A DNA stretch of 62,865 nucleotides, counting the filler, from Aduncisulcus paluster (lineage: Eukaryota), in the NCBI GenBank assembly GCA_024181965.1. It is 8 parts of 8 records of this genome, joined end to end, with 100 filler letters (N's around TTAATTAATTAA, not from the genome) between each part and the next. Parts side by side here need not be neighbours in the genome. Positions count along the whole stretch, not along the records: positions 31,563 to 42,308 come from BQXS01010953.1; 7 more parts are not named here. One strand, 5' to 3'. Position numbers and translations under genes: made by a program. Within the stretch, counting starts at the first letter, position 1, and the number at the start of each line of letters is the position of its first letter. Below are positions 6,105 through 56,748 of the stretch, one piece after another. The notes under the pieces were generated by a model that was not told where the DNA came from, did not search any database, and was given only the letters and a program-made list of their open reading frames with translations.

Positions 6105-6204
6105 NNNNNNNNNNNNNNNNNNNNNNNNNNNNNNNNNNNNNNNNNNNNTTAATTAATTAANNNNNNNNNNNNNNNNNNNNNNNNNNNNNNNNNNNNNNNN
6201 NNNN
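6105..6204. other. Artificial contig linker (N44-TTAATTAATTAA-N44); identical linkers at 17696-17795, 24478-24577, 31463-31562, 42309-42408, 49816-49915, 55617-55716
   Basis: The same 100-nt pattern with a six-frame stop core occurs seven times, and genes are cut at these points. Confidence 0.98.
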
Positions 6205-10657: not shown

Positions 10658-12497
10658 TCAGATTAATGGAGTATTTTCGCCTACTTTCTTACCTTTCCTA
10701 CTCTTCCCGTCATCTTCACCATCACTTACTTGGACCTGATATCTCTTAGATCCTTTCCCCTCATCCTTTTCTATGTCTTCTTCCGATTGGGACTGGCCTC
10801 CTCTCTGTTGCTTCTGAGTACACTTCTTCACGATAGCATACACAAGAAGCATCACAAGAACAGTGAGAACTATTGAGAGAATGACTGCAAATGCCATGGA
10901 ATGGAACCAAGGAACGACTGTTGAAGTGAAAGGGACGGGAACAGACCCGTCAGAAGGAATTGAAGCATCGACGGCATCGGCAGAACCAATTCTCCAAACA
11001 TTGAACAAATCGTCTTGCTCTGTCCATGGAAGGAGATCATTGTAATCAGAGTCAAGGATCTCATGTAAACGGGACGCAACGACAATGGCTGCCCCATTGT
11101 TAGCGAGAGAAGGGAAGGAAGGGAAGATGAAGTCATTAGCATCACAAAGCTCAGTGTGATCGTGCATAATGAAGCCAGAGAGTGGATACTTGGAGACTGT
11201 TGAATCAATAGTGATAGTATTCGTTGTGTATGTGTCCAGAGNNNNNNNNNNNNNNNNNNNNGGCAGAACCAATTCTCCAAACATTGAACAAATCGTCTTG
11301 CTCTGTCCATGGAAGGAGATCATTGTAATCAGAGTCAAGGATCTCATGTAAACGGGACGCAACGACAATGGCTGCCCCATTGTTAGCGAGAGAAGGGAAG
11401 GAAGGGAAGATGAAGTCATTAGCATCACAAAGCTCAGTGTGATCGTGCATAATGAAGCCAGAGAGTGGATACTTGGAGACTGTTGAATCAATAGTGATAG
11501 TATTCGTTGTGTATGTGTCCAGAGAGAAGGCAAGCAGGGCATTATGTTCGATAGCAGACACAAACAGACGATCGTCATTTGAGACAGCGATACCGAGACT
11601 GGCACTCCCCATTCCTGAGGGAATATTACCGTCAGCACCGGATCCATCAATGACAGTGCTCAAAGAAGAGTATATCACAGAGTCACGGGAATCGGAATCA
11701 TTCAGAAGGGAAGCAGCAACAGAGTACACCGCATGGGAAGTAAGAGGGGAGAAGAAAACAGAATCCAGAGAACGAGAGAAAGCAATAGAAGCAATTCCAA
11801 TATTTAATGGGGAATTGGGAAAGACATCTTGACCACAAATGTCAAATACAACACTCAAATCGGGGAGAACCTCAAATCTGTCTTCCAAACGTCTCCAAGA
11901 CAAACGAGCTTGTAAATCAGCAACAATAATTGCCGGATTATAAGACATTTTGGAATCAATGTCAATATTGGCATCTGCAACATAGACTATGGATTTCTCT
12001 TCATCGATAGCAAACGAAGTGAGATAGGAATTCAAAGAAATAGAGCTGTCAAGAGTAAAAAGATCCTTCCTTACTCCATCAGAAGAATAGCGAACGATCT
12101 TTGCACATTTTGAACACGGAGTACTATCAAGATCAGCTCTTCCAGAATCAAGAATCCAGACATCTCCATCAGTTCCAACATATATATCAGACACAGAAAT
12201 AAGAGATGTAGTCGTTGAAGAAGTGTGTGTGGTCCAATCGGGGAAAGGAGTAAGAAACCCATCAGCATCCTGATCGATCAAAGAGACGGTGGCGGGTACA
12301 TCAGAAAAAAATCTGGGAGTAACACCAAAATAACGGTCATTTGAATAATCGTACACCACCTTTGTAAGAGCAACGTGACGATATGTCTGATCATCCAAAT
12401 AGGCGTCCCCCTCTTCGGCTGAATCAAAGTTATAGTTTATATATGGGAAACTGAAGAGTTTCTGGTTCGTAAAGTCATGCTCATAGAAAGATTGCAT
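10658..12497 (-). CDS. Yellow/major royal jelly protein-like beta-propeller with C-terminal TM helix (~518 aa after removing the assembly duplication; true 5' end uncertain)
   Basis: Motifs LISVSDIYV..DGDVWILDSG, AIIVADLQARLSWRRL and GIASIAFS...VFFSPLTS are typical of MRJP/yellow. ORFs 11205-12497 and 10658-11650 join in frame once 283 nt (duplicate plus Ns) are removed. TM segment MAFAVILSIVLTVLVMLLVYAIV. Confidence 0.75.
10979..11524. other. Assembly artefact: 263-bp sequence duplicated either side of a 20-N gap
   Basis: 10979-11241 equals 11262-11524. Confidence 0.92.
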
Positions 12498-17695: not shown

Positions 17696-17795
17696 NNNNN
17701 NNNNNNNNNNNNNNNNNNNNNNNNNNNNNNNNNNNNNNNTTAATTAATTAANNNNNNNNNNNNNNNNNNNNNNNNNNNNNNNNNNNNNNNNNNNN

Positions 17796-23300: not shown

Positions 23301-24477
23301 CCTGACGAACAGTTCAGAAAAGATATATGTTACTTTGCCACATATGGTTCTGTTCTGTGTGATATTAGTGAGTATGAGCTTGCTTCCCTTCAAGGTGAAC
23401 CAATGTCTTATGGGTCCATTAACACTTCATACGAAGGAGCTGAATATCTTATCAATATCGATGGGTTTTACACACGAAATGAGTTAACGACAAGTATATT
23501 TCCAGTTGCCAAACTTGAACAATTGATAAAGTTGTATTTTTACAACGATAACAGTACCGTACCCTCGAATAGTATGGATATTCATGATTTTGACTCTTTA
23601 TACCCTCTTCACAGGTTGCAGCAGCTTGCCATCTATGGTAATGAGCGTATATACGATATTTCAGTATCATTTAGAAACATTTCTATGAATTTTTTGGAAA
23701 TTAGTGACACTTCATATTCTGTTTCAACATTAGCTTTGTGTAGATCAGAGAGCGATGAGGATTATTGGTCGATTATTACAACAATATTTCCAGTCCATGA
23801 TACCGATTCAGATGCCATGTCACAGTCATATTTGCCCAATAGCTGTCCCCTAAACGAAGAAAACACTTACTCTTGTGACCCTACCTCTTATCCTACACAG
23901 TGCCCTTCATTTGTTCTGAATGAAGTGTACGACAGCACTGCTGATACGCCCGTTAAGAAGTGTGCATCCATTGCCAAGACAAGTGGATCCGTGGAAACTG
24001 AGGATCTGACGTGTTATACAATCCATGATGATATGATTAGAAATTATCTGAAAGGTGTCTCTAGTGGATGTATTGCCAGCGAAGATGACATTGAATCGAA
24101 TGGTATCATTAGTGTTGCTACCCTGCGTAGTAAGCTGGAATGTGCGTCCCTTTCCTTGTCTGACGTTGTTAGCTATTCCTCTGTCTCTTCTGTGAATGAC
24201 ATCACTACTCTTCAGGGTCTTGAGTACGCCCAGGGAGTTGATTCTGACACTGACACTCCTATTGGTCTGACATCTCTGACTCTTGATGGGTATGACTTGA
24301 GTGGAGACATCAATGACAATGCTGAGTATGATAAGTTGGTTGTTCGGATATTATCCAAAGCCGTGACTGCTGGCGATATCGACTCTGGTCTCACGCATTT
24401 ATCAGTGAGTGGGTGTGGGTTGAATGCTGTCAGTGATGTGCTTGACTTGACTCCAATTAACTCATACGACACTTCCA
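20358..24477 (+). CDS. Large LRR- and Cys-rich surface protein with internal ~570-aa repeated module; truncated at contig end, start uncertain
   Basis: LRRs (LTYLDLSNNSISDVS, LTTLDISSNNICDI), EGF-like CGCRAAWRGDNCD, repeated ITTLQGLEYAQG module and hydrophobic N-terminal region. Confidence 0.85.
22554..23031. other. Assembly artefact: 229-bp sequence duplicated across a 20-N gap
   Basis: 22554-22782 equals 22803-23031. Confidence 0.9.
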
Positions 24478-24577
24478 NNNNNNNNNNNNNNNNNNNNNNN
24501 NNNNNNNNNNNNNNNNNNNNNTTAATTAATTAANNNNNNNNNNNNNNNNNNNNNNNNNNNNNNNNNNNNNNNNNNNN

Positions 24578-30823: not shown

Positions 30824-31900
30824 TTACCTAAAAAATAAAAACAAGCAGAACAATGAATGAATCCAATTAAAATATTTCTTAATATACATCTAATAAAAGA
30901 CGCAACATATAGTAAACATACAATTTGCTTGTTTGTCAAGAAATCGAAAAAATGGACTGAACAAGCAACTCTTCAATAGATAAGATTGGAAATTTAAAAA
31001 ACACATATAGACGAGTTAAATGCTGGTAAATGATAAAAACATGTTTTATTTTCATTTCCATGCCATGGTGTTTATTCTCGATATCTCAGGCTTTTGGAGA
31101 CCCCTCAGGACTGGATATACTTCCATTTCACGTGTTAAGAACATTTATGAACGATTTCAATGCTATTCAATAACATGGATATATTTCCATTTCATTTCTA
31201 TCCTTATCCTTGCCTTTCTGTTTCATTTTCACTTGCTTTTGCTTACAATCAAAAATATCAAGAACTCGGAATATGATGGTATACATATGTCTGTATACTG
31301 CTACGAATCTAATCCCCTGATGCTTCATGGAACATGACATTTCCCCGCAGTCAAATCCAACTCCAAATCCAAATCCAACTCCAACCCCAATGGCAGATCC
31401 TGATCATCTGATACATTTAATACTGAGCTTTGTGCTATTTCACCCCAGATTGACAATGTGACNNNNNNNNNNNNNNNNNNNNNNNNNNNNNNNNNNNNNN
31501 NNNNNNTTAATTAATTAANNNNNNNNNNNNNNNNNNNNNNNNNNNNNNNNNNNNNNNNNNNNTCTCAATGTTCAGTATCTCCCGTGCATTCATATCAGAC
31601 ATCTGAATCAAAAGACTATCCATGTTCTTCCTCATCCTCAAAGATACTCAATGAACATCCTTCACGAAATCAGAGCGATCATGATGGTCATGTCCATCGT
31701 TTGTTCTTGCTCTTCGCTCGGATGCTCTTCTTCATGGTTATATGTTCATCAATATGCATGGTCTGCAAATGTTTTATTTCTTTGCTTGTGTTGTAGACGT
31801 AAGCGAGAAGTTACATGTGTTCCCCATTGAGAAAATAGATAATAAATCTGCAATTTGAAATGACTTCATGGTAGTATTCCATACCTATCGTGGAATGGAA

Positions 31901-32037
31901 TTCAGTTGTAATTCACTATATTTTCAGTTGTAACAAATTATATTTTCAGTTGTAATATAGGTTCCACTTGTAATTCAGTTGTAACGAATTATATTTTCAG
32001 TTGTAATACAGGTTCTACTTGTAATTCAACTGAAAAA
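31901..32037. repeat. Minisatellite built on TTCAGTTGTAA with 51-bp period, ending in an inverted copy (CAACTGAAAA)
   Basis: Units start at 31923 and 31974; five TTCAGTTGTAA cores in total. Confidence 0.85.
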
Positions 32038-32057
32038 TTTTTATTTGTGTCGTTGTG

Positions 32058-32355
32058 TGATCATCGGATACATTTAATACTGAGCTTTGTGCTGAAAGTT
32101 TCTGAGCTTGACCCTATATCTGACGTAAAGGAGGGTATATCTGAGGGATAGGCAATAAGAGCGAATTATATGATCTATGAGGGTAAACCTGCTAAAGCTG
32201 TTGAATACCTCCAAAGTGCAGGATGCTCTTCGGCTGAATCGAAGCTGACCAGGCACGAAAGAAGGAATATTGCGCAAAAAATGTTCCCTAAAGTTGCCTT
32301 TTAATTTATTTTTATTTATATATTTTGTTGGTCCGTAAGGGATCACTTCTGAAGT
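32058..32355 (+). mobile_element. Probable decayed non-LTR retrotransposon ORF fragment (region just before/at start of RT)
   Basis: Translates DHRIHLILSFVL...*AIRANYMIYEGKPAKAVEYLQSAG...AQKMFP, then GP*GITSE in a shifted frame, resembling 'RA..L..EG..SKA...L.S.G...P' and 'GPDG'. The first 36 nt recur at 31401-31436 on a different contig. Confidence 0.45.
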
Positions 32356-32645
32356 CACGCTTCAACAAGTTGTTCACCTTGATTATCATAATCAAGACAT
32401 GATGTCTTCGGGTTTCACGGCTAATGGAAACTATCCAAACTTGAAGTTTTTATATTGGGTGTGATGCTTACTCTACCCATGGATCTATAAATAGAACCAG
32501 TGAGAATCATCATATAAACTTTTATGGACTTATCAGGTGAGATTCTCCATTGGAGTTGAAATGTTTCTCACACACAAAAACCTGTTTATTCGTTTGATCT
32601 ATTTTATTTCATTTTTGTCCTTGACTATCACTTCATTTTTCACAG

Positions 32646-32646
32646 T

Positions 32647-32701
<55 letters not shown>

Positions 32702-32703
32702 TT
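32646..32703. repeat. (ATTT)n microsatellite abutting the ZW10-like stop
   Basis: About 14 perfect TTTA/ATTT units. Confidence 0.95.
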
Positions 32704-35700
32704 CACTTCAGGGAAATGGTTTTCTGTTGTTTCTCACCGCACTTTCTAATTTTAGAAATGGCCGTATCTCTTTGCTGAGATTCATCAAAGAGTGATAAAC
32801 ACAAACTCTCAGTCCATTTATAAGGTAAAGCAAGAGGGGTCGTGGCTCTTTTCGTCATTTGTTCATTTTTCCCGTGTTTCCAATGGTCAAAGGCATCAGA
32901 AAAAGATAAAGTTAAGAACCAAATACATTGTTGCAACGCTGATATTTCTCTCCACATTGGGTTTTTCACCAACACATCAAGGCTGATCCATTGGTGTAAA
33001 TCCATTCGCCATTCTTTAAGCATTTTCTGCAATAAACTCCCCATATCTGATGCCACACTGTTGCTGATATCAGGAATTCCCAGAGAAAGCACCCGTGAGA
33101 GATTGTTTCTCATTGATTTGCAAAGGAGAGATGATATATCAGACCATAGCGACATCACAGAATGTCCACACAAATCATGCGTGCTAATATTTAACGTAGA
33201 AGAAGCAAAGAATGAGGAAGAAGCAGATGAAGATAAGATACTTGGTGGGAGACCACCATCTATAGCTATTTCAGGGGAAAGAGCCTTGTATATTGAGCTA
33301 ATTGAAAGGGCATCGTCATCCATCTTGCTAAGATCAGTCTTTCTCACTGCTCCAAAAATAGAACAATACATTGCTGTGACCACTCCGACAGCCTTGAGAA
33401 TATTCTCGGTATATTTTGAGAATTGACTCGATGCTAAAGTTGTCTTTTCTCGAAGTTGTCTAATCATTGGTTTTAAATATAGCGCATTGTAGGTTTCACT
33501 ATGATGTCCAAGGAAATCCCGCAAAGCAGCGAGGCATGAAGAAGAGGAAGAGGAAGAGAGGAGAGATAGAATAGTTGACACCGAATTGTGTCGGTGTTGG
33601 ATCATTGAACAAGAGAGAACATTATTCGATCTATCTTTAGAAGCTGAGAAAGAAGAAGAAGAGGAAGAGGATGGGAGGTCATAATTATTATGCCCATTTG
33701 GCAATATAATCTCCTTAATGATACTCGAGCTATGCAATAATTCCCTTGGCAATGTAGCTATAATGTTCTCTCTTATCATCATCATAGCAACTGAAACAAT
33801 ACATTCATGAACAAATTCATACAAATATTCAACGGAAAGCGTGTCTAAATGCCAAGTTTTATCATTAATTTTCTGCAAATGTCGTATTTTAACATCGATT
33901 GAGGGATTTTCAGTAGAAATGTCAACATCTTTAGTATCGGATGATGATTTGTTTGATGATCCAAATAACCATGAAAAGAACCCTCCTTTTCCTTTCTTCT
34001 CTTTCATTATATCGCTTCCTCTCTCACTTCCACTACTTCCACTAATAATAGTCTTTCCTCTGACAGAGCTATTTATAGATCCATGAGAAGAAGAGGAAGA
34101 GGAAGAGGAAGTAGCAGAAGCAGAAGCAGAAGCAGCAGAAGCACTGTGCCCATCAGAAGGAGAGCTAGATAATGAAGCAGAATACTTCCCCTTTTCAATA
34201 TGGGTACAACCACCACCGGGTAGTTCATGCAATTTGAGGATTATATATTTTAGGAACGATTGAGAAACATTGAAAAACGGCATTAAATGTGTCGATATAA
34301 GTTCTTTTGATTGCTCCAGCAATATATCTGTTGTTATATCATCTGAAACATATGGAAAGATCATTGGATGGATGTTGTTTGTTGTTGAACTGTTTGTTGA
34401 ACAAGAAATACCGTTCATTATTCCTTTCCCTTCAATCTCACATTCATCCTCTAGACTACTAGGCTTTAGACTATCAGGCTTTAGACTACTAGGCTTTAGA
34501 CTACTAGGCTTTAGACTATCAGGCTTTAGACTACTAGGCTTTAGACTATCAGGCTTTAGACTATCAGGCTTACTGTACTGACCCAAAGGATTCGTATCAT
34601 GAGTATCAACAATGTTGTCAGTTCCATCTCCTGCTCCTTCTTGTGCTCCTTCTCCTTCTTCTTCAGTTCCTTGAGATAGAGATACAGCATCGTCAGAATC
34701 TTCCCAACCTTCACCCTCACTCAACTCTTCTTCTCTTTCTTCTCCTTCTTCTCTTTCTTTGAGAACATTACTATTCTCTTTCATCTTCTTCTTGGATTCT
34801 TCTGATTGTATATCTTGGATGTTTCCTTTGCTCTGTGAAGTCTCATCTAGAATAGCTTTAGTACTAAAGCTTAAGGAAAGAGCAGGATCTACGATTCCAT
34901 AAATAATCTGACAACATTCATAGAGTTTCTCCTCCATTCTCAGGACATCCCAGATTATTCCACAGAGATTCCTACACTGATTACATATTTGGATCGCCCA
35001 CTGATGATTATTACCACCACCTCCAAGAGAAGCCGAGTGAAGAGAAGAAAGAAGAGGAGGGAGAGAACAAGAGGGGCTTGGTGGACAATATAATAGTGAA
35101 AAGGGAGATGCTGAAGACAACGGCTGAGGAGGTTCAGACTGAGGTTCAGGGTGAGGCTGAGATTGACCATGGATTTGATCATGATCATGGCCAGTACGAT
35201 AGGGTGATATACTTTCATCTTCTTCACCTGTCGTTATTGACTCTGGTTGTGAATCTATTTTTGGAATGATCGGTGTGCATATAGCGTTACTATTTTTAGA
35301 TATTGATCCAGAAGTGGGTGAGGAGAGATACATCCCTGAAGATTCTTCAGCAGTAGCAGTAGCACCTCCAAGCATCGTAAAGGCAGCAGAAGAATCATTT
35401 TCAGCATCCACGTCATCATCTTCTTTTTCAAGGCAGTCATCATGTTGGACACCAAGGATGGGACTCGGTGTCATTGCATGAGATTTTTTTCCAATTATGG
35501 GCTGGACAACTCCAATTATGGGCTGGACATCTCCGGCCGGTGGTGGAGTGACGGGCGCTATACTGCTATTTTTAGAATATCTATTTATAGAATGTTGAGC
35601 AGCTAAACGAGACATCGGTGTGGCATGAGATTGAGGAGTATGAGGAAGATTTGAGGCGTGCAAGGGTGTCAAAAGTTTGATATTTACCATTGTTTTTGCA

Positions 35701-38210
35701 GAAGAAGAAGAAGAAGAGGAAGAAGAAGAGGAAGAGGCCGAAAGATCTCCATCTCTTTTATGGATTATTTCTCCTGATCCTCTTTCTCGGAGTCCTGATA
35801 TTACCGTTTCAGATGGTTCAGATGTTTTAATTCCACCATTTGCAGCCGTTGATGCAGTAGGTATTTCTTGAGTCGATAGTTTAGAACTTCTTGACGGAAC
35901 TTCTACATAATCTCTATCAGCTCCAATATTCGATCTATTTTTAGAATGTTCTGAGATAGAAGAAGACGAGGAAGAAGAAGAGGAAGAAGAAGAAGAGGAT
36001 ATAATACTTTCCTGGACAAATTGTTCAATCTTAGTCGTTTCTCTTAATAAATCAATAATATTAATCGTGTTTTCGTCTTTTTCTCCTTTCATAACTGTTT
36101 TCATCAAGGAGACTCTAGAAACGCTAAGAGGAAATTGTTTTAACATTCGTAAATTCAACCTTTCAAGCGCACTAATTGCACCGCACATGACTATAATTAG
36201 ACACATGCTATAATTAGATGTCATTGACTTGATTAAGGCTTCATCAACACGAATAAAATAACGAGATACGATTGTTTTCATGACAGATACATCATATGAA
36301 TGATATACTGATATACTATCGGACGACTGTTTCTTCTTCTCTTTCTCTGCCTCATCTCTTGTTTCTCTTTCTTTTTTGTTACTATTAACATTTGTTTCAT
36401 TATTAGGTAAGGTGGATAATACAAAGACGGTATCAAATATATAGGGAGATAATACATCAGTTCGTCCAAGGAAATAATCTCTCACGTGGTCAATAGTCGT
36501 CTCTGAGAGCTGTGTACACACTCCACGAGTAACTGTGCTATTATTAGGACATATCTTAATCAATGAAGCCAGTGTCAATGTCAGAGTACTCAATGAAAGC
36601 GAAGAAGAAAAGGAAGAAGAGGAGGAAGAAGAAGAGGAAGAGGAGGAAGAGGAGGAAGGGTGTTCTGAATAATGTTTTTGGTGTGCATATAGACCTTGAG
36701 ATCCTCTCCTTTTCCTTTTCTTGTTCAGTATAGTACAATGTTGATGTGACCATTGTTTCATCGTAGAGCACATGGAAGTCACCAATTTCATGGATATTTG
36801 ACGTATAACTGTTGATATCTCTACTTTAACTTCATTAGAAAATGGGATTGAGATGAGAGAACATGCTTTGAGGAATTCAGGGATCAGAGTCACAGGCAAT
36901 AATTGTAAAGGGAACTGAAGAAGAGGAGGAGGAGGAGGAGGAGAAGGGATAGTGGGTTGTCCTGATGTGGAAGTGGAGGATCTAATTATAGACATTGAGA
37001 AAGAAGAAGAGAGAGCAGTATCTCCAATCAATTGAAAGAATGAACATAAATGGGACAATGACTTTTGGAATAGATNNNNNNNNNNNNNNNNNNNNATAGT
37101 ACAATGTTGATGTGACCATTGTTTCATCGTAGAGCACATGGAAGTCACCAATTTCATGGATATTTGACGTATAACTGTTGATATCTCTACTTTAACTTCA
37201 TTAGAAAATGGGATTGAGATGAGAGAACATGCTTTGAGGAATTCAGGGATCAGAGTCACAGGCAATAATTGTAAAGGGAACTGAAGAAGAGGAGGAGGAG
37301 GAGGAGAAGGGATAGTGGGTTGTCCTGATGTGGAAGTGGAGGATCTAATTATAGACATTGAGAAAGAAGAAGAGAGAGCAGTATCTCCAATCAATTGAAA
37401 GAATGAACATAAATGGGACAATGACTTTTGGAATAGATTCCTGACTTTCTCATCAAAATATTTTTGGGACGATATCTCAATATGACTCATGGACTGTAGT
37501 GTCATGTCAGAAGAACAAGAAGAACAAGAAGATGAAGAAGAAGAAGAAGAAGGGGAAGAAGAAGAAGGGGAAGGGGAAGAAGAAACTTTTGAAGGCGATT
37601 TGATAAGGAATTTATGTTTATCTTCTTCATATATTTCATGGATTCGGGCGTATGCTCGACCAATGGTGCTTCTCGCAGCAACAAAAGTACTAAATGCAGA
37701 AGAACACTCAACACAAAATTGAATGAGGGAAATAAGCTCATTTGAGGCCAAATATTCATTATGTTGAGTGGATGTAGATATCAAGGGAATTGTTAACAGA
37801 GTTTCTGACGGTTTCGAATCAAGCAGAGCAGATAATGCCTTTTCCGCCTGTAATACAGGGCTTAGCTTGACAAATAATCTTTCTAATTCTTCTTTTTTAT
37901 CTAGAGATACGATTTGTTCCACAATTTCATCATATAAATCTCCTATTTCCTGGGAAGAGGAGAAGGTATGTTTATCAGAATGTATATAAGAAGATTTCAA
38001 TATATCAAGCCGCTTACTCAGTTGTACCGCATACTTACTTGAATATTCATTGTCTATCACCTGAATTACAGATTCAAGAAGCTCAGAACGTTGTTTCTAA
38101 ATGACATGAAGAGTATAAATAATGAATCGATAAGGAAAACATATAAATTATCAACAAAAACATACTAATAAAAAATCCAATTCTTCGAATTGGATCTTAG
38201 AGTTCTCCAT
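32703..38210 (-). CDS. ZW10/Dsl1-like tethering protein, expanded by low-complexity inserts (~1690 aa corrected); intron 38097-38165
   Basis: The C-terminus VLSLGIPDISNSVASDM...PMWREISALQQCIWFLTLSFSDAFDHWKHGK...LCLSLFDESQQRDTAISKI resembles the ZW10 end (EDIS...SL.EI..RW..GK...LIRALF.....R..AL.KI). Exon 1 MENSKIQFEELDFLL (38210-38166) splices GTATGT...TTTAG in frame. Confidence 0.7.
34451..34571 (-). repeat. 15-nt coding tandem repeat, (KP[DS]SL)x8
   Basis: AGGCTTTAGACTATC and AGGCTTTAGACTACT units on the + strand. Confidence 0.95.
36730..37438. other. Assembly artefact: 346/343-bp duplicate across a 20-N gap, copies differ by one GGA
   Basis: 36730-37075 vs 37096-37438; the poly-Pro run is 6 vs 5 codons. 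Confidence 0.9.
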
Positions 38211-38924
38211 TGTTGTCAAAATGGCAATTGAATTCGAAAATTGATTGCTCCGTTCAATTCAATAGTATCGATATAAAAAACCAATGGTAACATTAAGCTC
38301 TTTATTTCATTAACATTTTCAACACACTATCTTTTGTTGTATCATATTTCTCACCTTTAGAAGGAATTTCAATCACCACGGGTAATGACTTACTTTTAAC
38401 GTGATTTTCGACAATTGTTCTGATTGATGATGCAATGGTTTGATTAATAATGATCATTGCATTCGTTTTATCTTCGATGAAGAGATTAAAATGCTTTGCT
38501 ACATCCTCGGGCTTGGTAGAATCTTTTACAACAAAATAATTCTTGTCTCCAACTCCAACCCCAGTTAAAAGGAAACCAGAAATTGTATCCTTTTATCAAT
38601 GACATTATAAAATAATTAAACAACAAGTGGGCAAATTAATATTTGAAATTGAAGGTAAGAAAAGCAATAAAATATTATCTAATTAGTAAATTCACATACT
38701 GTATCTCCAATCAAAGCAATTTTACCCGCATTCATCCTGTAAATGTTGTCAAATCCACTCGAAAATGGATTGAATTCAAAAAATGAAGAAAAAATTAAAT
38801 TAATGGTCAATATTCTTTATTGAAATCAACTATATTTTTTATATTAAATTTTAAATAATGGTATTATGAATGGGGTCAGCTCCAAGATAAGGAAAGAAGT
38901 TGTGAAGTTGAAAACCCATAATAT

Positions 38925-39365
38925 CTATTCTTTCATTTCTTCTTCATCCTCCTCTTCCTCCTCTTCTTCCATTTCGGTCTTCATTTCCTCTATTTTTTGC
39001 TGTACTCTTGGGTTGGCTTCCAACAACATATCAAAAAGGGCGCTAGCTTCTGAATCTGTCAATTTGTCCTCGATATGATCAATACAAGAATAAACTTCTG
39101 CAAGAGAAAGAGGAATATTGTTTAATAAATTCCTACAATCCAAATCAGTGAGTTTAGGAAACTGAGAGAGGGCTGACAAAGATGCTTCAAAGCTTTCGGC
39201 GGTAAAATGACCGACGCTTTGCTTTAAAACATATCTTACGAGCGCTTGAAATTTTTTATGTGGTTTAGATAAAGAGATAGGGCGTGGAACTAGAGCATCC
39301 ATTTCCTTCTTCCGCATAAGGCGTCTAAAAACTTCCAAATCTGTTAATATAATATCTGTATCCAT
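38925..39365 (-). CDS. RNA polymerase III subunit RPC9/C17 (Rpb4-like HRDC fold)
   Basis: IILTDLEVF...LTDLDCRNLLNNIPLSLAEVYSCIDHIEDKLTDSE resembles RPC9 LSNYEV...LT..E.LQLLN.RP....E...IVEE.EERLT.E. Confidence 0.75.
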   Translation of the reverse strand: MDTDIILTDLEVFRRLMRKKEMDALVPRPISLSKPHKKFQALVRYVLKQSVGHFTAESFEASLSALSQFPKLTDLDCRNLLNNIPLSLAEVYSCIDHIEDKLTDSEASALFDMLLEANPRVQQKIEEMKTEMEEEEEEEDEEEMKE

Positions 39366-39515
39366 TGTTATTTCTATTGATTTTTTGGCATTTATCTTGT
39401 GTAACGCAAAACAAGGAAATGAGTGTTTTGAGAAAGTCGTGACTTGTTGATTCTTTCATTCATTCGTTCTCCACCCACCAATTTAATATACAGGTCAAAT
39501 ATAAAAAAAGACTAA

Positions 39516-41073
39516 ATGTCAGGTAGTGAGCAGCTGGACTTTAGATTTTGCCAGGTATTTGGTGATACTTGTCCTGTAGAGGAAGCAAGTAATTGTGACA
39601 TCATCAGCGCCGTAAAGTTTGATAAAACTGGTCAATATTTGGCTGTTGGTGATAGGGGAGGAAGAGCAATCATATTTGAAAGGGCAGAATCTAAAAAGAA
39701 AAGCAAGTCACACTTTGTCGGTTATAAGTTCTTAATTGAATTTCAATCTCATGAACAAGAGTTTGATTACCTTCGTTCGTTAGAAGTTGATGAAAAGGTA
39801 TGTCTATTTTTTTTTATTAATTAACGTTTTGACCTCTTTTCTGTTGAGTTAGTCTCACTCATTGGTATTTCCCCATTTTGACAAATATCCACAAACACCT
39901 TTATTTTTAAAATATTATTAGATTAATGCAATTCATTGGTGGAATCCCCAAAACAAAGCTCAACTTCTTCTTTCTGCAAATGATAAAACCATCAAATTGT
40001 GGAAAATATTCCGCAGAAAAGTTGTAGAAGTCGGTAATTTAAACATTCCTAAGCCCGAAGGCCGAGTATTAGACATGGCTACTGCCAGACGCATTGCAAA
40101 TCCCGGTGATTTGCGTATCCCTCGTTTGCGGACGACTGAATTAATGCTTTCCGCCATTCGTAGACGTCAATATGCCAACATCCATTCTTATCACATCAAT
40201 TCCCTCTCTTTATCCGCTGATGGAGATGTATTCCTTTCTGCTGATGATTTGAGAATTTATATTTGGTCCTTGCATCATCACAAGGAAGTTTTCAACGTTT
40301 GTGACATTAAACCCGCCTGTATGGGTGATTTGAGTGAAGTTATCACCTGTGCCAAGTTCCACCCTCGTGACGGTGCTGTCATGTTCTATGGTTCTTCCAA
40401 AGGAGCCGTTAGAATGTGCGATATGAGATGCAGGGCCCTTTGTGACAAGCCAACGAAGGAGTATTATACTCCCCCCGTCGGTGGTGGCGTTAGTGAGATT
40501 GTTGCCAGCGTTGGAGATTTCCAAGTGAGTACGGATGGTCGTAACATTTATTCTCGTGATTATCTTGGTATTAAAATATGGGATGTTCGTAAGTCTGACC
40601 ACCCAGTCACCACTATTCCCATCTACAATGGTCTCCGAAGCAAACTTGATAGTCTGTATGAAAGCGAATTCTTGTTTGATCGATTCCATCTGGCGCTTGG
40701 TCCTCACAGTCGTTATCTTTTCACTGGATTCTATTCTGATCACTTCTTCTGTTATGACGGCCATGGAAAGTACGGATTCACTGCCCAAGCTTCAAGATCC
40801 GTCCTTGGAAGGAAAGTTCGTGAGAAAAAAGCCATTGAGTTGGCCAAGGCTGCTGCCAGCAACCCTCTTACTGGTGCCAGTATAAATGGAAAGCGTGTTC
40901 TTGATGGAGGCCAATACCTTGGGGATTTTGCCCCCGATCTATCTTACAAGAAAAAGATATCATTTCTGGACGTACATCCAACTGAAAATATTGTTGCACT
41001 AGCCACATTATGCAATTTGTATATATACACTGGTGTGAAGCCACAGGTTGGCTCGAGATCATCCAGAAAATGA
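39516..41073 (+). CDS. PP2A regulatory subunit B (B55/Cdc55), 477 aa; intron 39798-39921
   Basis: DIISAVKFDKTGQYLAVGDRGGR, EFQSHEQEFDYLRSLE.DEK|INAI, NDKTIKLWK, HSYHINSLS and SADDLRI. The 124-nt GTATGT...TTAG intron restores the frame. Confidence 0.97.
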
Positions 41074-41394
41074 AACTTTACAGTGACACTTATTTTCCCT
41101 TTTTGAAAAAGGCTTTTTCTATTATTTTTGGAATCCATCAGGTTTCAACATTTCAAACAGTAAAAATAATAATATTTACTATTTGTTTTATATGATAATT
41201 TATTACCAATTGTGTTGTCATCATGACAAGGGATATGATATCCCTGGGATCGAAATGGGCCATTTCTTGACACCACAGGTGAACAACTAATGTTTTTGAC
41301 CTTCACATAATTAAGTGCTCAATGGTGAACGTAATGGATATTTCTATTTTTGAATTACAATAAGATGTTGCATTTTTTTTGCAGATTAACTTCC

Positions 41395-41457
41395 GAAGTT
41401 CCAAATGCGGCCGGGGCGTCTTTATTACAAACAACAACAACAGAAGTTCCAAATGCG
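41395..41457 (+). mobile_element. Ultra-short insertion CGGCCGGGGCGTCT-TTATT-ACAA(ACA)n with 13-15 bp TSD GAAGTTCCAAATG(CG)
   Basis: Direct repeats at 41395-41409 and 41443-41457. A second family member lies at 54893-54953. Confidence 0.8.
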
Positions 41458-42408
41458 AGTCCCATCATGCGATCTATATGATATTGCAGCTGTAAAATGC
41501 AGCTCAATGAGCTGGAACTGGATTCATGGGAGCAATGGGTATGGGCGGTGGAATGATGGGCGGAATGGGATTCTAATCCAGAAGATTCAACTCTGTCTTA
41601 TTACACTTGGTTTCTAATGTGTCAATGTTTTAGCTTATGTATTCAATCCAATCAAAGCCTTTGATTCTTGTGTCCGTAATCATCGTGACGATAGTTCAAC
41701 ACAAAAATGGATTTTGAAGATCAAATATCTTAGGGGGGTTTGCCAGATCGACTCGATCTGATCGAGGTACGGAGAATATTTGAAATCCTTTTAATAACTA
41801 ATTTGAAAATGTATACAGTATTACTGTCTTTCATGTGTTATATAAATGCATGTGATAGATGATCTACTGACTATCAATGATATAATATCATCGTTTTGGT
41901 ACGCCATATACCTGGTTTAATAACCCAGTGGTTTGTAACGGAAGCAACAGTGTGTTTTTGATTTCTCTTCTCTCCAGCATTTCTCCCCTTTCTTTGTTTT
42001 GGAGATTTATTTATAGGACGACTTTGTACGCCAATTTTCTAATCGTTTTGAATGCTATAAATCCCAATTCGTGACATTCTTCTGTATTTTGGTTTTCATT
42101 GGATTCCATTTTAAATAAGTTAGATCCCAAGCACTGCCTGATTGCCGCCTCAGGCGCTGGCCAATCGATCATCCAGTTCCATTAATTACTATTGCTGTTA
42201 CGATAATTTTTTTTTGCTGTCAGTAATACTGGCCCAGTAACACCAGTGGTGATATATGATGATAGACGATGTACATTGAATGCACATTCCATGGATGCTG
42301 AGTTGTCANNNNNNNNNNNNNNNNNNNNNNNNNNNNNNNNNNNNNNNNNNNNTTAATTAATTAANNNNNNNNNNNNNNNNNNNNNNNNNNNNNNNNNNNN
42401 NNNNNNNN

Positions 42409-49583: not shown

Positions 49584-50151
49584 CACAAACAATAACACAA
49601 CTATGGATTATCCAATATCAAATTAAATAAAATAATAAACACCAATAACCTTCCAATTGCAAGGAAAAACACATTTTTACAATTGTCTTGGAACAGAACA
49701 ATAATATCCAAAATCGATGTTTCTTATCATTATTAATATATAGACGTAATAATAAATCATTTATTTTGTAAACACATTTGTTCTCCAAATAAGGCGTACT
49801 CAGACATTATTGACANNNNNNNNNNNNNNNNNNNNNNNNNNNNNNNNNNNNNNNNNNNNTTAATTAATTAANNNNNNNNNNNNNNNNNNNNNNNNNNNNN
49901 NNNNNNNNNNNNNNNAGGGTTTTTCTTATTCTGATATGAATCTTTTCCCTTAAAGTGGAGGTTTTTCTTTTGTCTTCAAGACGGCAAGATTTCTTGCTAT
50001 CCTTTTTCTTGAAGAGAGAACTTTTCCTCCTTCCATTGGTAGGGTGTTTTTAATTTTTTTTTACATCCTCCCTTTTTTTTGGCTTTTTTTTTTTACGACC
50101 GCTTCCCCCGTCCGTTCCGGTAATTGGCTTTCTTTTTTTTTTTTTTTTTTT

Positions 50152-50408
50152 TGCTCAGCATGGAGCACTTCAATTACCTCCGTGCTGAGCAGGTCACGAT
50201 GCTCGGTCTCTCTCTGCCAGAGCCGTGCTCAGGTAGGGAGATGATGGAGAGATGTGTTCGTCGACATAGGGAGGCCCTGGATTCATTATTCCCTCGATTA
50301 ATGTTGAGGCCAATCTATGAACAGCAGTGTTGTTTTGGACAGTATCTTCTTTTCGAGGGGAAGAGTATATGCGATTTATTCGTTTCCTGTCCCAAATAGC
50401 ACATGGCT
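50152..50408 (+). mobile_element. End of a GC-richer repeat element sharing a 105-nt structured terminus with the SelD 3' insertion
   Basis: 50303-50408 is the reverse complement of 4643-4747. A 14-bp hairpin TGCTCAGCATGGAG/CTCCGTGCTGAGCA spans 50152-50191 after poly-T. A 79-aa ORF lies at 50160-50399. Confidence 0.55.
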
Positions 50409-50651
50409 GCAAATGAAGTAGTTGGATAAATAAAGATTATATTTTAATGTATTCGAATATTATTTTGCAGAATTACTATATTTACAGTATAATACCAAGT
50501 ATTATTAAAGCATCTACTTTGTTTTTTAAATATTGATTTCCGGAGTGGTATGATTCAAATTTGGGCATTTTTGAAAAGAAAATATCTTTAACAATATCCA
50601 TGAATAAAATATTTCAAAATTTCAAATCCATATTTTTTATCCAATTGAAAA

Positions 50652-51188
50652 ATGGACATATTTCCATATTTTGATCGAATGATGCCTTCTGAGCAAACTT
50701 CCTCGTCAGTGTTTGTTAGAAAACAAGCTCATGATATATTATTTGCCACAGCTCCCGATGGAAAAGCGAAATTAGGTGAAGTATGGGCGAAATATAAACA
50801 ATCCTTAAGAAAAGGATCTGATGTATCCGAACAACATGAAACTAGAGATTATAGAGAAGCCACATCAACTATTTCTGAAGAAGATGGATTAAGTATTCAA
50901 GATTTAACACAATCTTTTGGAACTCGTTCCCCTCGTATTGCTGCCAATGCTGTCCGAGCTACAGGATATGGAGCACCCAAAGTCGTCATTCGTGAACCTG
51001 AAGTTCGTGATGATATTCCCTCGGTGATTGCTAGAAAGTTTCCCGTATCTGAAAGGAAATTGGAGGCTTTTACTTCGTTTTTACACACAGCTAGTTGCAG
51101 TGAATTGTCAGCCATTCCTGATGAATATATCATACAGCTTTTAGGTCTTGCCCAAGCCATAAATTCACGATTTAAGATTCAAAAATGA
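50652..51188 (+). CDS. Hypothetical protein (178 aa)
   Basis: ATG ORF with coding-like composition between AT-rich flanks. Confidence 0.7.
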   Translation: MDIFPYFDRMMPSEQTSSSVFVRKQAHDILFATAPDGKAKLGEVWAKYKQSLRKGSDVSEQHETRDYREATSTISEEDGLSIQDLTQSFGTRSPRIAANAVRATGYGAPKVVIREPEVRDDIPSVIARKFPVSERKLEAFTSFLHTASCSELSAIPDEYIIQLLGLAQAINSRFKIQK

Positions 51189-51382
51189 ATTTATTTCTTG
51201 TACTTTAGTTTCAATATTTATCTTTGTTCCAAATAAAAATTCTTTTAGTTCAGAATTAGGGAATTGTATTTTATATATATTTTATATATTTTATGAAATC
51301 ACTGATTCGATGGCATCGATTTGGTCTATTTTGATTCTTGTGGAATCTTTTTTCCGTATATTCGTTTGTGATATGTTATTCA

Positions 51383-52951
51383 ATGGATTTTTCTGCCCCT
51401 TTATCAATTGTGCCCTCCCATTTTTGTGGATATGAAGCTTGGGAACATAAACTTGTTAAAATCGATTCAAATATTGAATTTGTTCAGTTTTTACAGGATT
51501 CCATGATAAACAAATCTATTGAGATGGTTTCTAGCGATATTATTGAATTTTTGTCGAAAAGGAGTGAGTTTGTTACATTAATCCTTCCAGCCCTTAAATA
51601 TTTTGTATCTCAAACTTCTTCCCTGTTTCCCGCACCAATATATCCATTTAAGCCGCATAAAATTGCTCTAAAGGAAGAATTTCGTGATGAAATCAAGTGT
51701 GTTCCTGAGTTTTTTCTCCCCGTCTTTGGTTCAGATATAGAAACCATCCTTTTAAAACAATGGTCATTCTCTAAACAACAAACAATATGCTTAGTATGCC
51801 ATATGTTCTGTTGTTCTTTCCCCTTTGTCTTTAACGTGGATGAGGTCTGTGGTTTCAACAGGTATTGGGAATGCATCAAATATCCAAGTGCCCAAGCCCA
51901 TCTAACAATGGCGATGGATTATATAAAGCTTTGTTTTTTGTCTCCTACTTATATTTCTGATCCCACCTCTATTCAAATCAATCGTGTTCTCCTGTGTGAT
52001 TCCCTATTTTCAACTTTTATTTCTTCTCTGAAAGATCATCGTTTCCATTTAAAACATTTCAACGTTCTCGATGAACTTATTTGTGGAGCATTTGATCGGC
52101 CGCTCTCTACCCTCATTTTTCATCACGATGGATATATTGGGTGTTACGAGTGTCCATCGGATGTTGAACTTGACTTTGCACATCGTTCAATTGGGTATGG
52201 GCCGTTTGCAACCCAAGAAGAGATTGTTTTTGGAACCATGCCAGAAGCGTGTATTGCTCCACTAGTCAATACGTCTATGAGCGACTCTGAAGCCTGTTGT
52301 ATTAGGGGGACAACTCACATTGGCCAAGGAATTGGGTATGCTAAATCATACAAGTATAAAGGTGTGCATGGTGATATTTCTCGTGAATGGATTGAACTTC
52401 AATCACATTCACCAGAACAGTTTGTCCTTCATTCTGTACCAACAGATTATATAGATAAGAAAACGTTGAGACATCCTTCCATTATGTGTGTCGATGCTAA
52501 ATGTTATGGTTATGAAGATTCTTTGAAATGTCAGGTTGGTGATATCCATCGAGATTTGCAGAAATATATGTGTGGCATTTTGGCATCCATGTTATCTGTA
52601 CAATTAAGTGAATGTCATGAGCACCCTCCCGAATTAAAATCAAAAACTCCCACATACGACGGAAAGCCTGTAGAATTTTCTCAGATTAATTCGTTGGGAA
52701 CTGGTCCTTGGGGTTGTGGTGTCTATGGGGGTGATAAACAACTTAAATTATGTATTCAAGTTCTTGGATCTTCGTATTTTAAGGTGAAATGTCTCCATTA
52801 TTTCACATTTGGGGAAAAGAAAATTCAAGATCAATGGGATATGTGGAGGGGAAAACATAACATCACTTCTGCTGGAAAACTCTTCGAAATATTGGAAAAT
52901 TACAAGAAATATGTTAAACATGGAGGTAAAAAACAAATATTTGAATTTTAA
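51383..52951 (+). CDS. PARG: Poly(ADP-ribose) glycohydrolase (PARG, eukaryote-type)
   Basis: ELDFAHRSIGYGPFATQEEIVF...PE and TGPWGCGVYGGDKQLK match PARG VDFAN..GGG...QEE and TGNWGCGAFGGD..LK. First ATG at 51383. Confidence 0.9.
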   Translation: MDFSAPLSIVPSHFCGYEAWEHKLVKIDSNIEFVQFLQDSMINKSIEMVSSDIIEFLSKRSEFVTLILPALKYFVSQTSSLFPAPIYPFKPHKIALKEEFRDEIKCVPEFFLPVFGSDIETILLKQWSFSKQQTICLVCHMFCCSFPFVFNVDEVCGFNRYWECIKYPSAQAHLTMAMDYIKLCFLSPTYISDPTSIQINRVLLCDSLFSTFISSLKDHRFHLKHFNVLDELICGAFDRPLSTLIFHHDGYIGCYECPSDVELDFAHRSIGYGPFATQEEIVFGTMPEACIAPLVNTSMSDSEACCIRGTTHIGQGIGYAKSYKYKGVHGDISREWIELQSHSPEQFVLHSVPTDYIDKKTLRHPSIMCVDAKCYGYEDSLKCQVGDIHRDLQKYMCGILASMLSVQLSECHEHPPELKSKTPTYDGKPVEFSQINSLGTGPWGCGVYGGDKQLKLCIQVLGSSYFKVKCLHYFTFGEKKIQDQWDMWRGKHNITSAGKLFEILENYKKYVKHGGKKQIFEF

Positions 52952-53345
52952 CGCAAATAATTATGGAAGATATTGATGAAATAATGAATCTCGGATTATC
53001 AGTTGCTATCTTGTGGCGAGATGCTCTATTTTGTCTGAGTTCATAGTCTTTTGATCAAGTGGACTGCAGAAATTAGTAAAATTGGATAAATCTCCCATGA
53101 TTCCTGGGATTGTTGTTTTGCAAAACTTTTGATCAAAAGTATGAGTGTTAATGGCTGCTTGGCACATTATTCACACTAATTATTTATTTTTATCAATAAA
53201 TCAACAAAAATTTGTGTTATTTGCTTATAGTGTCTCTTGACCCAAAATTCAATCATTTTCTTCTGTGGTTTTCTTAGTTGTTTTCTCTTGCCTTAAAGAG
53301 TTTGAATCAAACCAATTATATTAAAATTTTATACATTTCAACATC

Positions 53346-54620
53346 ATGCCCGAATCTGAATTGACAATCGCAGAACAATGCTTTATTCATCCTCCACCTC
53401 GCAAAGGGACATTCAATACTTTTAAGTGGGATCAGAGTCAAAAACTCCATGGAGATGATGTTTTACCAATGGGAGTTGCTGATACTGACTTCCCGCTGTG
53501 CCCTGTAGTTAAAGCACGCTTCGTAGAAATATTGGACTCTTATCCGTTTTGTGTTTATCAGTCGGCAGAATTGGATGATAGAGCATATGAAGCTGTTTCA
53601 AAGTGGTTTGGAAAACACCATGGCTTGAAATTTGAACGTTCTCGGATGCGTTTATTATGTTCCGTGTGCAATTGTTTTGTGGCAACAGTCTTGTCCTATA
53701 CTGAAGTGGGCGATTCTGTTGCCCTCTGCATGCCGACTTACTTTTGTTTTAAGCCACATGTAGAACGCCATGGTCGTGTTCCGCTTGAGATCCCACTCAT
53801 TCTCGATGAAGATGGTCGTTATTGCTTTGATTTCCCAACAATCGAGGAACTATTTGCCAAGGACTATGCATTAGGAGCTGAGAAAAAAATTAAACTCCTC
53901 GTTTTGTGTTCTCCAAACAATCCCACTGGAACTGTGTGGACTTGCGCTGAATTGAGAAAATTGGACGAATTATGTTTCAAATATGATGTCCATGTAATTG
54001 CCGATGAAGTCCATGCCCCTATCGTTCGCGAAGGCGTCGAATTCGTTCCTTTCCTTTCAATCTCTCCTAAATGTCGTCACACTTGGGTGAGTTCTCCTTC
54101 TAAAACGTGGAACATGTGTAGTGCGCAGAGTGCCGTTGTTCAGTGTGATACCGATGATTCAGTTCTGAAATTTGGGGAGACTTTGAAGTTGCTTGCAACA
54201 TGGGGAAGTAATATCCTTGGACGTATGATGCTCACTGCGGCGTATGAGGTTGGAGAGTCTTATCGTCAAGAATTAATCAAACACATATGGAAAAACATGG
54301 AAATCTTCTGCTCCAAAATGGAATCCATGGGCTTTGTGTGTCCTGTTCCTGATAGTACTTTTGTTGTGTGGTGTGATGGATCCGTTATTAATGAGATCAT
54401 TACAAAGAAAAGAAAGGAGTTGAAAGAAGGAGAAGAAGATACATTGCCTCCATTATTTGAGTTCCAAAGTGTTCTGGATCATGCTCGTATTCTTTCAACA
54501 TCAGGACCTTGCTTCTCCTGGAAAGACGACTGTGTTAGGTTCAACCTGGCAACCCCCATGTATAATATTCTTGAGGCAATCAAACGTATAGAGGCAGTTT
54601 GGGGTGATATTTTTTTATAG
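53346..54620 (+). CDS. PLP-dependent C-S lyase, PatB/MalY family (cystathionine beta-lyase-like)
   Basis: Motifs KWD, DDVLPMGVADTDF, LCSPNNPTGTVW, ADEVH, SPSKTWN (PLP Lys) and VRFNLATP. Confidence 0.9.
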   Translation: MPESELTIAEQCFIHPPPRKGTFNTFKWDQSQKLHGDDVLPMGVADTDFPLCPVVKARFVEILDSYPFCVYQSAELDDRAYEAVSKWFGKHHGLKFERSRMRLLCSVCNCFVATVLSYTEVGDSVALCMPTYFCFKPHVERHGRVPLEIPLILDEDGRYCFDFPTIEELFAKDYALGAEKKIKLLVLCSPNNPTGTVWTCAELRKLDELCFKYDVHVIADEVHAPIVREGVEFVPFLSISPKCRHTWVSSPSKTWNMCSAQSAVVQCDTDDSVLKFGETLKLLATWGSNILGRMMLTAAYEVGESYRQELIKHIWKNMEIFCSKMESMGFVCPVPDSTFVVWCDGSVINEIITKKRKELKEGEEDTLPPLFEFQSVLDHARILSTSGPCFSWKDDCVRFNLATPMYNILEAIKRIEAVWGDIFL

Positions 54621-54892
54621 ACTTCCTATTGTCAATCGCCGCCATGATCTAGTATATTATTGTAAAACTATGAAATAATTAATTTTGTTTTTCTCGTTTC
54701 CTGTTGAATTATGTTTTATTTTCTTTTTTTCTCATGATTATCCAGTGTCAAGTGGGATCCATAACATCATTTCATTCTACTGTATCTGTTATTCTATTTT
54801 CAAATCTGAATTTGGAATATCTTTTCTACCACATATATTCATGACCTCTTCATTGAATGAAGCTTCATTCGAATTATTTTCGGAATAAACTC

Positions 54893-54953
54893 AACGAATC
54901 AATATCTTGTTGTTTGTTGTTGTTAGACGCCCCGACCGAACGAATCAATATCT
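54893..54953 (-). mobile_element. Ultra-short insertion CGGTCGGGGCGTCT-A(ACA)n (31 nt) with 15-bp TSD AACGAATCAATATCT
   Basis: Direct repeats at 54893-54907 and 54939-54953 flank insert 54908-54938, which is homologous to 41408-41442. Confidence 0.8.
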
Positions 54954-56748
54954 ATTTCACTATTTTCCAATGTTTTGCATCATGCAAACTGCATGGGGTT
55001 CGATGACTCTCAATCCTTTTGAAATCATTCAAATATCTCGATAATATCTGAACATATTCTTTTATATTTGTCTTCAAAAATGGTTTGGAGATATTGATGG
55101 CGCTGCAAATGCTGATTCGAACTTCCGTTTGAAACCAACGTCGGTTGAAATGAAATAAATGGTATATTCTTGCCCAATAATCAGTTGAATTTAAAAATAT
55201 GATATTTATTAAAGTTGTATTATATGTGTTAATGATTAGCTCGAAACATCGATTTGTTCTATCCAGTAGTGAGGGTACGATGGAGTGGAAAGTCAAAAAT
55301 GATATGAAATAACTCTTCAGATTGAACCCAATGGTGCCCATACCATCCAATATGATCAATGATTACATCCAAGAAACAAACTCTGCCAGGACTGATCCAA
55401 TGGACCAGAACTCCCATAGTGCAGACTTTCTTCAAGTATATTGTCAAGATATATCGGATAATACCAAAATACACGTCATGATGATTATCACTACTAAACA
55501 GTATATATAAGATTGGTACAGAGAGATGATTTACAGATTCTTGATGGCATCAATCATTCCAATCAATTCTACGAGTTGTTTATATAGCTGCTCTCGTTGT
55601 GAAAGAAGTTTTTCTGNNNNNNNNNNNNNNNNNNNNNNNNNNNNNNNNNNNNNNNNNNNNTTAATTAATTAANNNNNNNNNNNNNNNNNNNNNNNNNNNN
55701 NNNNNNNNNNNNNNNNGACATAAATCTCCTGAAACTTCAAGAAAAATAGGATCCTTCCTTTGTTTAATCTGGATAAGAAATTGGACGAGTTAACACAATA
55801 TTATAAGTATTTTATGATATAATCCAACGTTATTATATCAATAAAAAGAAATGGTTGGAATTATCAATCCATCCACAAAGAATCCACAGAACCTGGTGAA
55901 CATACAGTTTTGGAGAATAAACCCATGATAATGCAAAATATTCAACTTTTTATCGGTATATATACTTATAATTCCAAATATTACGAAGAGTAATCACGGA
56001 GGCTAAGAAGAAATACTGTAATGTTAGCAAAATCGTGATGTGTTTTGTGTATCTTGATACTTGATGAGATGATGAAACATCCATGTCGTTAATAAAATAT
56101 ACACATTCAATTTATGACAGATCTAAATATTTCTCATTGCTCGATACTTCCAGAAGTTCTTTCTATTCATCTCTCGCTTCGTACACCTTTTTTGTCAACA
56201 TCACTTCCGTCTTATATGCGATGATCTGAGAGTTTATTGTATATTTATTCCGAGACAATGTTTACTTCGATGTTTGTCCTGTTGTTTCAGGGTCTAAAAC
56301 ATCAATTCATTCGTTCCGTCCATTCTGTCCATTCCGTCCATTTTATGGTATATTAATTGATGACACGCGTGTGAAGATCTGTGATATTTTTCAGTACTCA
56401 ACAAACACAACTCATCCAACACACTGCCATACTTGAAGGTGTTATCATCTCATCCAAGATAGATTGATATCTCTCTCTTCTTGTCGAATCTAATGATCTT
56501 ATTCCAATGGATCACTCATGAAGGTATTATTATGCACAACATATCGTGTATATCTATCGTTTCTAATCCCTATTTGAATAACTTTTTCAAGGATTGAATC
56601 CTTATTACTGGACTCGAGGTGCATATTCTGATAGATTGAAAATAAAAACTCCATTCCTTCCCCAAATTTATCAAGTCCCTTTCCATCATTTTTATTTCTC
56701 ACAATTATTTCTCCCTCAAAATGTATTTTACTTTTTTTGGTACAACTT

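Follow-up and report, generated by a model that had tools for sequence, protein, structure and literature searches.

[quoted passage not shown] L1, in which recognition of the RNA 3' end is relaxed, typically shows extreme 5' truncation together with microhomology at the 5' junction, while RTE elements, reportedly since the work of Malik and Eickbush in 1998, are almost without a 3' UTR and often severely 5'-truncated. SINEs are ~2-10 times longer than the 31-35-nt inserts considered below, the smallest being, to our knowledge, ~70-80 nt.

Tails and target sites are treated in PMC6007223, where LINE target-site duplications span 7-18 bp, with 13-15 bp commonest for L1 and RTE duplications mostly of 10-12 bp and rarely above 13-15 bp. 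In that source, (CAA)n 3' tails are listed (Table 2) for animal RTE LINEs and their SINEs, and the duplications of (CAA)n-tailed RTE elements often begin with A. Among green algae, L1 and RTEX LINEs are given (CAA)n or (CA)n tails in Table 3 of PMC3747384, and the accompanying text links repeat tails to template slippage. For A. paluster itself, the genome announcement contains no transposable-element analysis (PMC9933649), and our literature searches turned up no study of mobile elements in A. paluster or in free-living fornicates, and nothing relevant on fornicate non-LTR elements.

Two short insertions with perfect 15-bp duplications

The DNA analysed here, referred to as the window, is a stretch of 62,865 nt made of 8 A. 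paluster contigs with N44-TTAATTAATTAA-N44 linkers between them; neither distances nor neighbourhoods that span a join are real. Within it we found two closely similar structures of 61-63 nt each, with no N inside, located on separate contigs (copy 1 in 31563-42308, copy 2 in 49916-55616):

41395-41457, plus strand: copy 1, whole structure, a 15-bp exact direct repeat around a 33/35-nt insert
41395-41409, plus strand: copy 1 upstream target-site duplication, 15 bp exact, GAAGTTCCAAATGCG; its final CG can alternatively be read as bases 1-2 of the head
41408-41421, plus strand: copy 1 head, 14 nt, GC-rich, CGGCCGGGGCGTCT
41422-41426, plus strand: copy 1 TTATT, a 5-nt spacer between head and tail, missing in copy 2
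41427-41442, plus strand: copy 1 CAA/ACA-type tail, 16 nt, ACAAACAACAACAACA, abutting the downstream duplication
41443-41457, plus strand: copy 1 downstream target-site duplication, 15 bp exact, GAAGTTCCAAATGCG
54893-54953, element on minus strand: copy 2, whole structure, a 15-bp exact direct repeat around a 31-nt insert
54939-54953, minus strand: copy 2 upstream target-site duplication (in element orientation), 15 bp exact, AACGAATCAATATCT
54925-54938, minus strand: copy 2 head, 14 nt, CGGTCGGGGCGTCT, with one C/T difference from copy 1
54908-54924, minus strand: copy 2 tail, 17 nt, AACAACAACAAACAACA
54893-54907, minus strand: copy 2 downstream target-site duplication (in element orientation), 15 bp exact, AACGAATCAATATCT
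6105-6204, 17696-17795, 24478-24577, 31463-31562, 42309-42408, 49816-49915 and 55617-55716: linkers, N44-TTAATTAATTAA-N44

With the CG counted in the duplication, the copy 1 insert is 33 nt long (41410-41442) and reads GCCGGGGCGTCTTTATTACAAACAACAACAACA; if the CG is given to the insert instead, the duplication shrinks to 13 bp and the insert becomes 35 nt (41408-41442), starting CGGCCGGGGCGTCT. The initial annotation had assigned copy 1 a 13-bp duplication, and the duplication stands while that length does not, since the exact repeat is 15 bp and reaches only 13 bp when the CG goes to the head. Overlaps of this kind are seen at microhomology-mediated 5' junctions, and copy 2 has none between target and head. 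The copy 2 insert (54908-54938, 31 nt) reads CGGTCGGGGCGTCTAACAACAACAAACAACA on the minus strand.

The heads are identical at 13/14 positions and, at ~86-93% G+C, stand out from a genome of ~37-39%. The inserts differ by one C/T change, by the TTATT found in copy 1 only, and by tail lengths of 16 vs 17 nt; both tails finish in the same register, …CAACA, right at the duplication junction, and a simple repeat is present at one end only. Both copies begin at the same base, CGG (n = 2), while the two duplications are perfect, mutually unrelated in sequence and different in their first base (G in copy 1, A in copy 2). These results bear out two statements made from a first inspection of the sequence, namely that the same head (with one mismatch) and an ACA tail recur at 54908-54938 on another contig beside an unrelated duplication, for which we find the 15-bp AACGAATCAATATCT, and that both copies share their starting base, which random 5' truncation would not predict. 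Copy 2 also contains an in-frame TAA exactly at the head/tail junction; an ORF running almost to the tail, as this TAA would fit, is an RTE-like trait, and it carries no weight here since copy 1 is without the TAA.

Both copies are confirmed as real and non-random observations. We ran 40 first-order Markov simulations over the window's 62,105 non-N bases, counting exact direct repeats within 100 nt: those of at least 15 bp had 0 occurrences in the 40 simulations, and those of at least 13 bp a mean of 0.15. Once tandem and low-complexity arrays were removed, the only close repeats of at least 15/16 bp in the non-coding DNA of the window were copy 1, copy 2 and a longer insertion at 4627-4835. 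The head CGGYCGGGGCGTCT has exactly 2 occurrences in the window, even at up to 3 mismatches, and blastn-short with both inserts returned no third copy there.

Comparison with LINEs and SINEs

As in the RTE LINEs and RTE-tailed SINEs listed in Table 2 of PMC6007223 (RTE-1_EC, RTE1_LA, AFROSINE-2, SINE2-1_EC), each copy has a (CAA)n 3' end abutting a duplication of variable sequence, and one of the two duplications here starts with A, as that source reports for (CAA)n-tailed RTE members. Unlike RTE, no RTE ORF was seen in the window, and the duplications measure 15 bp where those of RTE are mostly 10-12 bp and rarely above 13-15 bp. Unlike the listed RTE elements, moreover, the copies reside in a metamonad protist and consist of just 31-35 nt with one shared start.

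As in L1, the duplications at 15 bp fall in the modal 13-15-bp length given in PMC6007223, the tail is of the (CAA)n type tabulated for green-algal L1/RTEX in PMC3747384, and copy 1 has its 2-nt CG overlap at the 5' junction. Unlike L1, the copies have no poly(A), no L1 ORF was seen in the window, and the shared 5' end is unexpected. With SINEs and internally deleted LINE derivatives (for example R2 SIDEs, PMC3414825) they share a short non-coding body and a defined 5' end, and they would depend on a LINE enzyme through the 3' end; unlike SINEs, they have no Pol III promoter-like part and no recognisable 5' part of a parent LINE.

A possible origin by target-primed reverse transcription

Retroposition is well supported as a reading of both loci, by their anatomy and by precedent. 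Target-primed reverse transcription by a LINE-type enzyme has as its usual signature the combination seen here, of unrelated perfect ~15-bp duplications with a repeat tail that lies at one end and abuts the duplication, and with shared non-repeat sequence beside that tail. The first inspection had drawn the same conclusion from the duplications and simple-repeat tails, and the anatomy described above fits it. Its head-to-tail orientation also agrees with our own, which we infer, at n = 2, because simple-repeat tails sit at the 3' end; in the alternative orientation the GC block would be the fixed end and the TTG repeat the variable end, and two copies cannot prove either. The absence of terminal inverted repeats together with a 15-bp duplication likewise counts for retroposition, as against DNA transposons, and the pairing of perfect duplications with slightly differing inserts points to recent insertions whose templates were not quite identical.

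In the sequence of events that we propose, the bottom strand would be nicked at the left edge of the future duplication, and the freed 3' end would prime reverse transcription on an RNA ending ...CGGYCGGGGCGUCU, followed by 0-5 nt more and then (CAA)n. Copying would stop after just ~31-35 nt, and a second nick 15 bp away with fill-in would produce the 15-bp duplication. The template would most likely be the extreme 3' end of an uncharacterised A. paluster non-LTR retrotransposon, or an RNA carrying that end, and the shared start would be put down to a site where the enzyme preferentially stops or jumps, without any dedicated tiny gene.

We give a probability of roughly 0.5 to the main reading, in which both loci are independent retroposition events produced by a LINE-type endonuclease and reverse transcriptase of A. 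paluster, and we see an even chance that the copies are extreme 5'-truncated LINE tails (or come from an RNA with a LINE 3' end) that break off where the enzyme preferentially stops or jumps, 14-19 nt upstream of the tail. Several observations count against the LINE-tail reading. Both copies share their start, unlike the outcome of random 5' truncation; the 62 kb of gene-dense contigs examined contain no reverse transcriptase, endonuclease, longer copy or parent; and an initial A, as reported for the duplications of (CAA)n-tailed RTE elements, is seen in copy 2 only, with 15 bp at the upper edge of the RTE range. We nevertheless favour, at n = 2, truncated LINE tails over a discrete ~33-nt retroposon. 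The copies look like very short leftovers of a LINE-type copy-and-paste element, probably insertion products of a known and ordinary kind in a protist with undescribed mobile elements, with an identical start as their one odd feature. If they are truncated LINE tails, they would still help to locate the parent element and to date insertions in A. paluster.

Searches for a source element or RNA

Pfam searches for reverse transcriptase, endonuclease and transposase domains found none in the 256 ORFs of the window (0/30 of at least 130 aa and 0/226 of 60-129 aa), and no longer copy reaching 5' of the head is present within the window. ARAGORN identified 0 tRNA genes in the window, and Rfam families were matched neither at gathering score across the whole window nor at E<=5 around copy 1 (0 in both cases). 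The inserts show no tRNA, 5S or 7SL similarity, and the 14-19 nt ahead of the tail leave no room for an internal Pol III promoter. A retrocopy of a known small cellular RNA finds no support, as Rfam gave no match and the head recurs nowhere else in the window, although at 14 nt it is too short for this to be a sensitive test.

RNA folding gave z = +1.35 and +1.55 vs shuffles for the inserts alone, and z from +1.35 to +2.52 for the inserts alone or with flanks, corresponding to less structure than in shuffled sequence. A self-contained recognition hairpin in the insert was rejected on the basis of these positive z values. The same result bears on the preferred-stop account, against which it counts, since a hairpin-type stop is expected before the 3' arm of the stem and not after it, and the insert is without a fold. 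Tail-only recognition as in L1 would explain a structureless insert.

Two sets of possible relatives were considered and set aside. A scan of a prokaryote genome collection yielded 13 loci matching head and tail, all in GC-rich bacterial coding DNA without duplications and 10 of them carrying the same 24-nt string class, which encodes a conserved …GRGVSDN… motif; they are coincidences of sequence, unrelated to the element, and irrelevant here. Within the window, CGGNCGGGG has 3 occurrences vs 0.19 expected, the third of them in CGGACGGGG within 50084-50150, a position that could be taken for a diverged third relative. Beyond 9 nt, its similarity to the head is not significant, 36/3,508 windows scoring equally well, and we retain it as a lead only. 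The region 50084-50150, just upstream of the ATG of a 79-aa ORF, holds a 37-nt GC-rich island with long T runs on either side and a 12-nt low-complexity direct repeat flanking it.

Surroundings of the two copies

Neither insert disrupts recognisable coding sequence, and both lie in non-coding DNA. Copy 1 is 335 nt downstream of a PP2A-B stop codon, in ~1.2 kb without a convincing reading frame, on a contig (31563-42308) whose 383-aa ORF at 39922-41073 has 100% identity to a database protein. Copy 2 lies between the end of an aminotransferase gene (54617), whose ORF has 100% identity to a 424-aa database protein, and the end of a convergent minus-strand ORF (54955-55362); the latter matches no Pfam family, lacks database relatives in the range 74-238 aa, and is therefore not a confirmed gene. 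An insertion preference for poly(A) sites just after stop codons was dropped, with the ORF beside copy 2 unconfirmed as a gene and no Giardia-like signal enriched after the 20 usable stops. An intron or introner was also rejected, because direct reading of both copies reveals no GT…AG boundaries that would allow precise removal of the insert.

Two further features of these contigs may be mentioned in their own right. At the threshold used, the class I/II aminotransferase at 53346-54617 matched, beyond itself, only bacterial proteins of the MalY/PatB-like type (35% and 28% identity), and is a candidate for a laterally acquired gene. Near copy 1, a short frame at 41508-41576 has a Gly/Met-rich end (…GAMGMGGGMMGGMGF, followed by a stop) that resembles chaperonin-60 C-termini; no chaperonin coding sequence was found upstream of it on contig 31563-42308.

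Alternative explanations for the two copies

The strongest alternative, which we regard as unlikely without discounting it, is that each copy is complete. A dedicated RNA of ~20-35 nt, or a fixed-boundary template within a larger RNA (as in telomerase), would be fully copied by a LINE enzyme acting in trans, and all copies would be predicted to share the same 5' base and to vary in tail length only. The common CGG start and the common tail register speak for such a template, a head of ~86-93% G+C in a genome of ~37-39% G+C suggests a specific functional RNA segment, and finding 2 copies in 62 kb of gene-dense sequence would translate, by naive extrapolation to 29.4 Mb, into ~950 (roughly 1,000) copies, with a very wide Poisson range of ~100-3,400 for a count of 2. 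Weighing against a complete element are the sample of two, a length too short for any known internal promoter, the lack of tRNA, 5S or 7SL similarity and of intrinsic RNA structure that an enzyme might recognise, and the TTATT difference, which indicates that the template was not uniform; a non-exhaustive literature search, which included the shortest SINEs and strong stops, found no precedent.

A complete mobile element of ~33 nt, which would be the shortest known retroposon and would have entered a metamonad genome at hundreds to thousands of sites with 15-bp duplications each time, seems to us doubtful. The further proposals of the first inspection, a defined tiny RNA as template and a high copy number, are not supported by the 2 copies, on 2 of 8 contigs, in the window. 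Were a discrete ~33-nt element to be real, the lower size limit of retroposons would move down, and the amount of RNA that a LINE enzyme must recognise would prove to be very small.

A DNA-level event is improbable. Filler or templated DNA might have been captured where a double-strand break was staggered, or the copies might be a footprint or internally deleted remnant of a non-TIR DNA element, whose two termini would then be the GC head and the CAA repeat. Fixed head and tail ends around a variable middle (TTATT vs nothing) do form the pattern of a two-terminus remnant. DNA transposon duplications are, however, fixed and short, at 2-11 bp, as against 15 bp in both copies, and we know of no DNA transposon superfamily with 15-bp duplications. 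Direct reading shows the copies to lack terminal inverted repeats, as the head has nothing in common with the reverse-complemented tail; no transposase domain occurs in the window; and two independent breaks that caught the same 14 nt and the same repeat type would need an abundant donor.

The longer insertion at 4627-4835 also bears on this explanation, combining as it does a long duplication with no simple-repeat tail and a patch copied from another locus. Here an exact 18-bp repeat, CCTGACTCAATTTACTAG, surrounds an insert of 173 nt. A stretch of 103 nt in it shows 99% identity, in inverted orientation, to positions 50303-50406 of another contig; the match covers the last ~30 codons and the stop of the 79-aa ORF (50160-50399), and the remaining 70 nt match nothing in the window. 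The insertion starts 4 nt past the TAA that ends an AIR-synthase-like gene. Lacking a (CAA)n tail, it may have arisen by a process different from that behind copies 1 and 2, and a chimeric retrocopy and a patch insertion are both conceivable. Its 18-bp duplication, which we also count in favour of the LINE-type reading of copies 1 and 2, implies that a process making 15-18-bp staggered duplications acted repeatedly in this genome. Together with copies 1 and 2, it indicates recently active machinery with 15-18-bp target duplications in a free-living relative of Giardia, and this machinery is probably that of a LINE.

Chance resemblance or a sequencing or assembly artefact is highly improbable, since, even though the source assembly is a fragmented Illumina-only MaSuRCA draft with artefactual 211-263-bp duplications around 20-N gaps, 15-bp exact repeats at such spacing are absent from the simulations, the head shared at 13/14 positions occurs nowhere else in the window, and each structure lies within the length of a single read without any N. 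A structure of 61-63 nt fits in one 150-nt Illumina read, so that no assembly join would be needed to produce it, and we take the head to differ from the Illumina adapter.

Assembly features and other repeats

The A. paluster genome is available as a 29.4-Mb Illumina-only MaSuRCA draft of 25,863 contigs, with an N50 of 4.6 kb and 39% G+C (PMC9933649). In three contigs of the window, 20-N scaffold gaps (within 10979-11524, 22554-23031 and 36730-37438) are flanked by exact 211-263-bp duplications of the same sequence, and the third gap has a second duplicated pair of 150-156 bp. These duplications are probably unclosed scaffolding overlaps, which give false repeats inside ORFs.

We excluded from the insertions a one-mismatch 19-nt repeat at 31112/31176, which lies inside an open DHHC-like frame and whose 64-nt spacing is not divisible by three. 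A 36-nt sequence, with one mismatch, is common to the end of one contig (31402-31436) and the start region of the next (32059-32093), the latter occurrence adjoining a 22/51-nt tandem array (TTCAGTTGTAA…) at 31899-32024. Repeats within ORFs were also observed, namely a 268-nt segment repeated at 92% identity within leucine-rich-repeat ORFs (22239-22506 and 24189-24456), and a 15-nt tandem coding repeat at 34444-34586 in a serine-rich ORF of 1,456 aa that matches no Pfam family.
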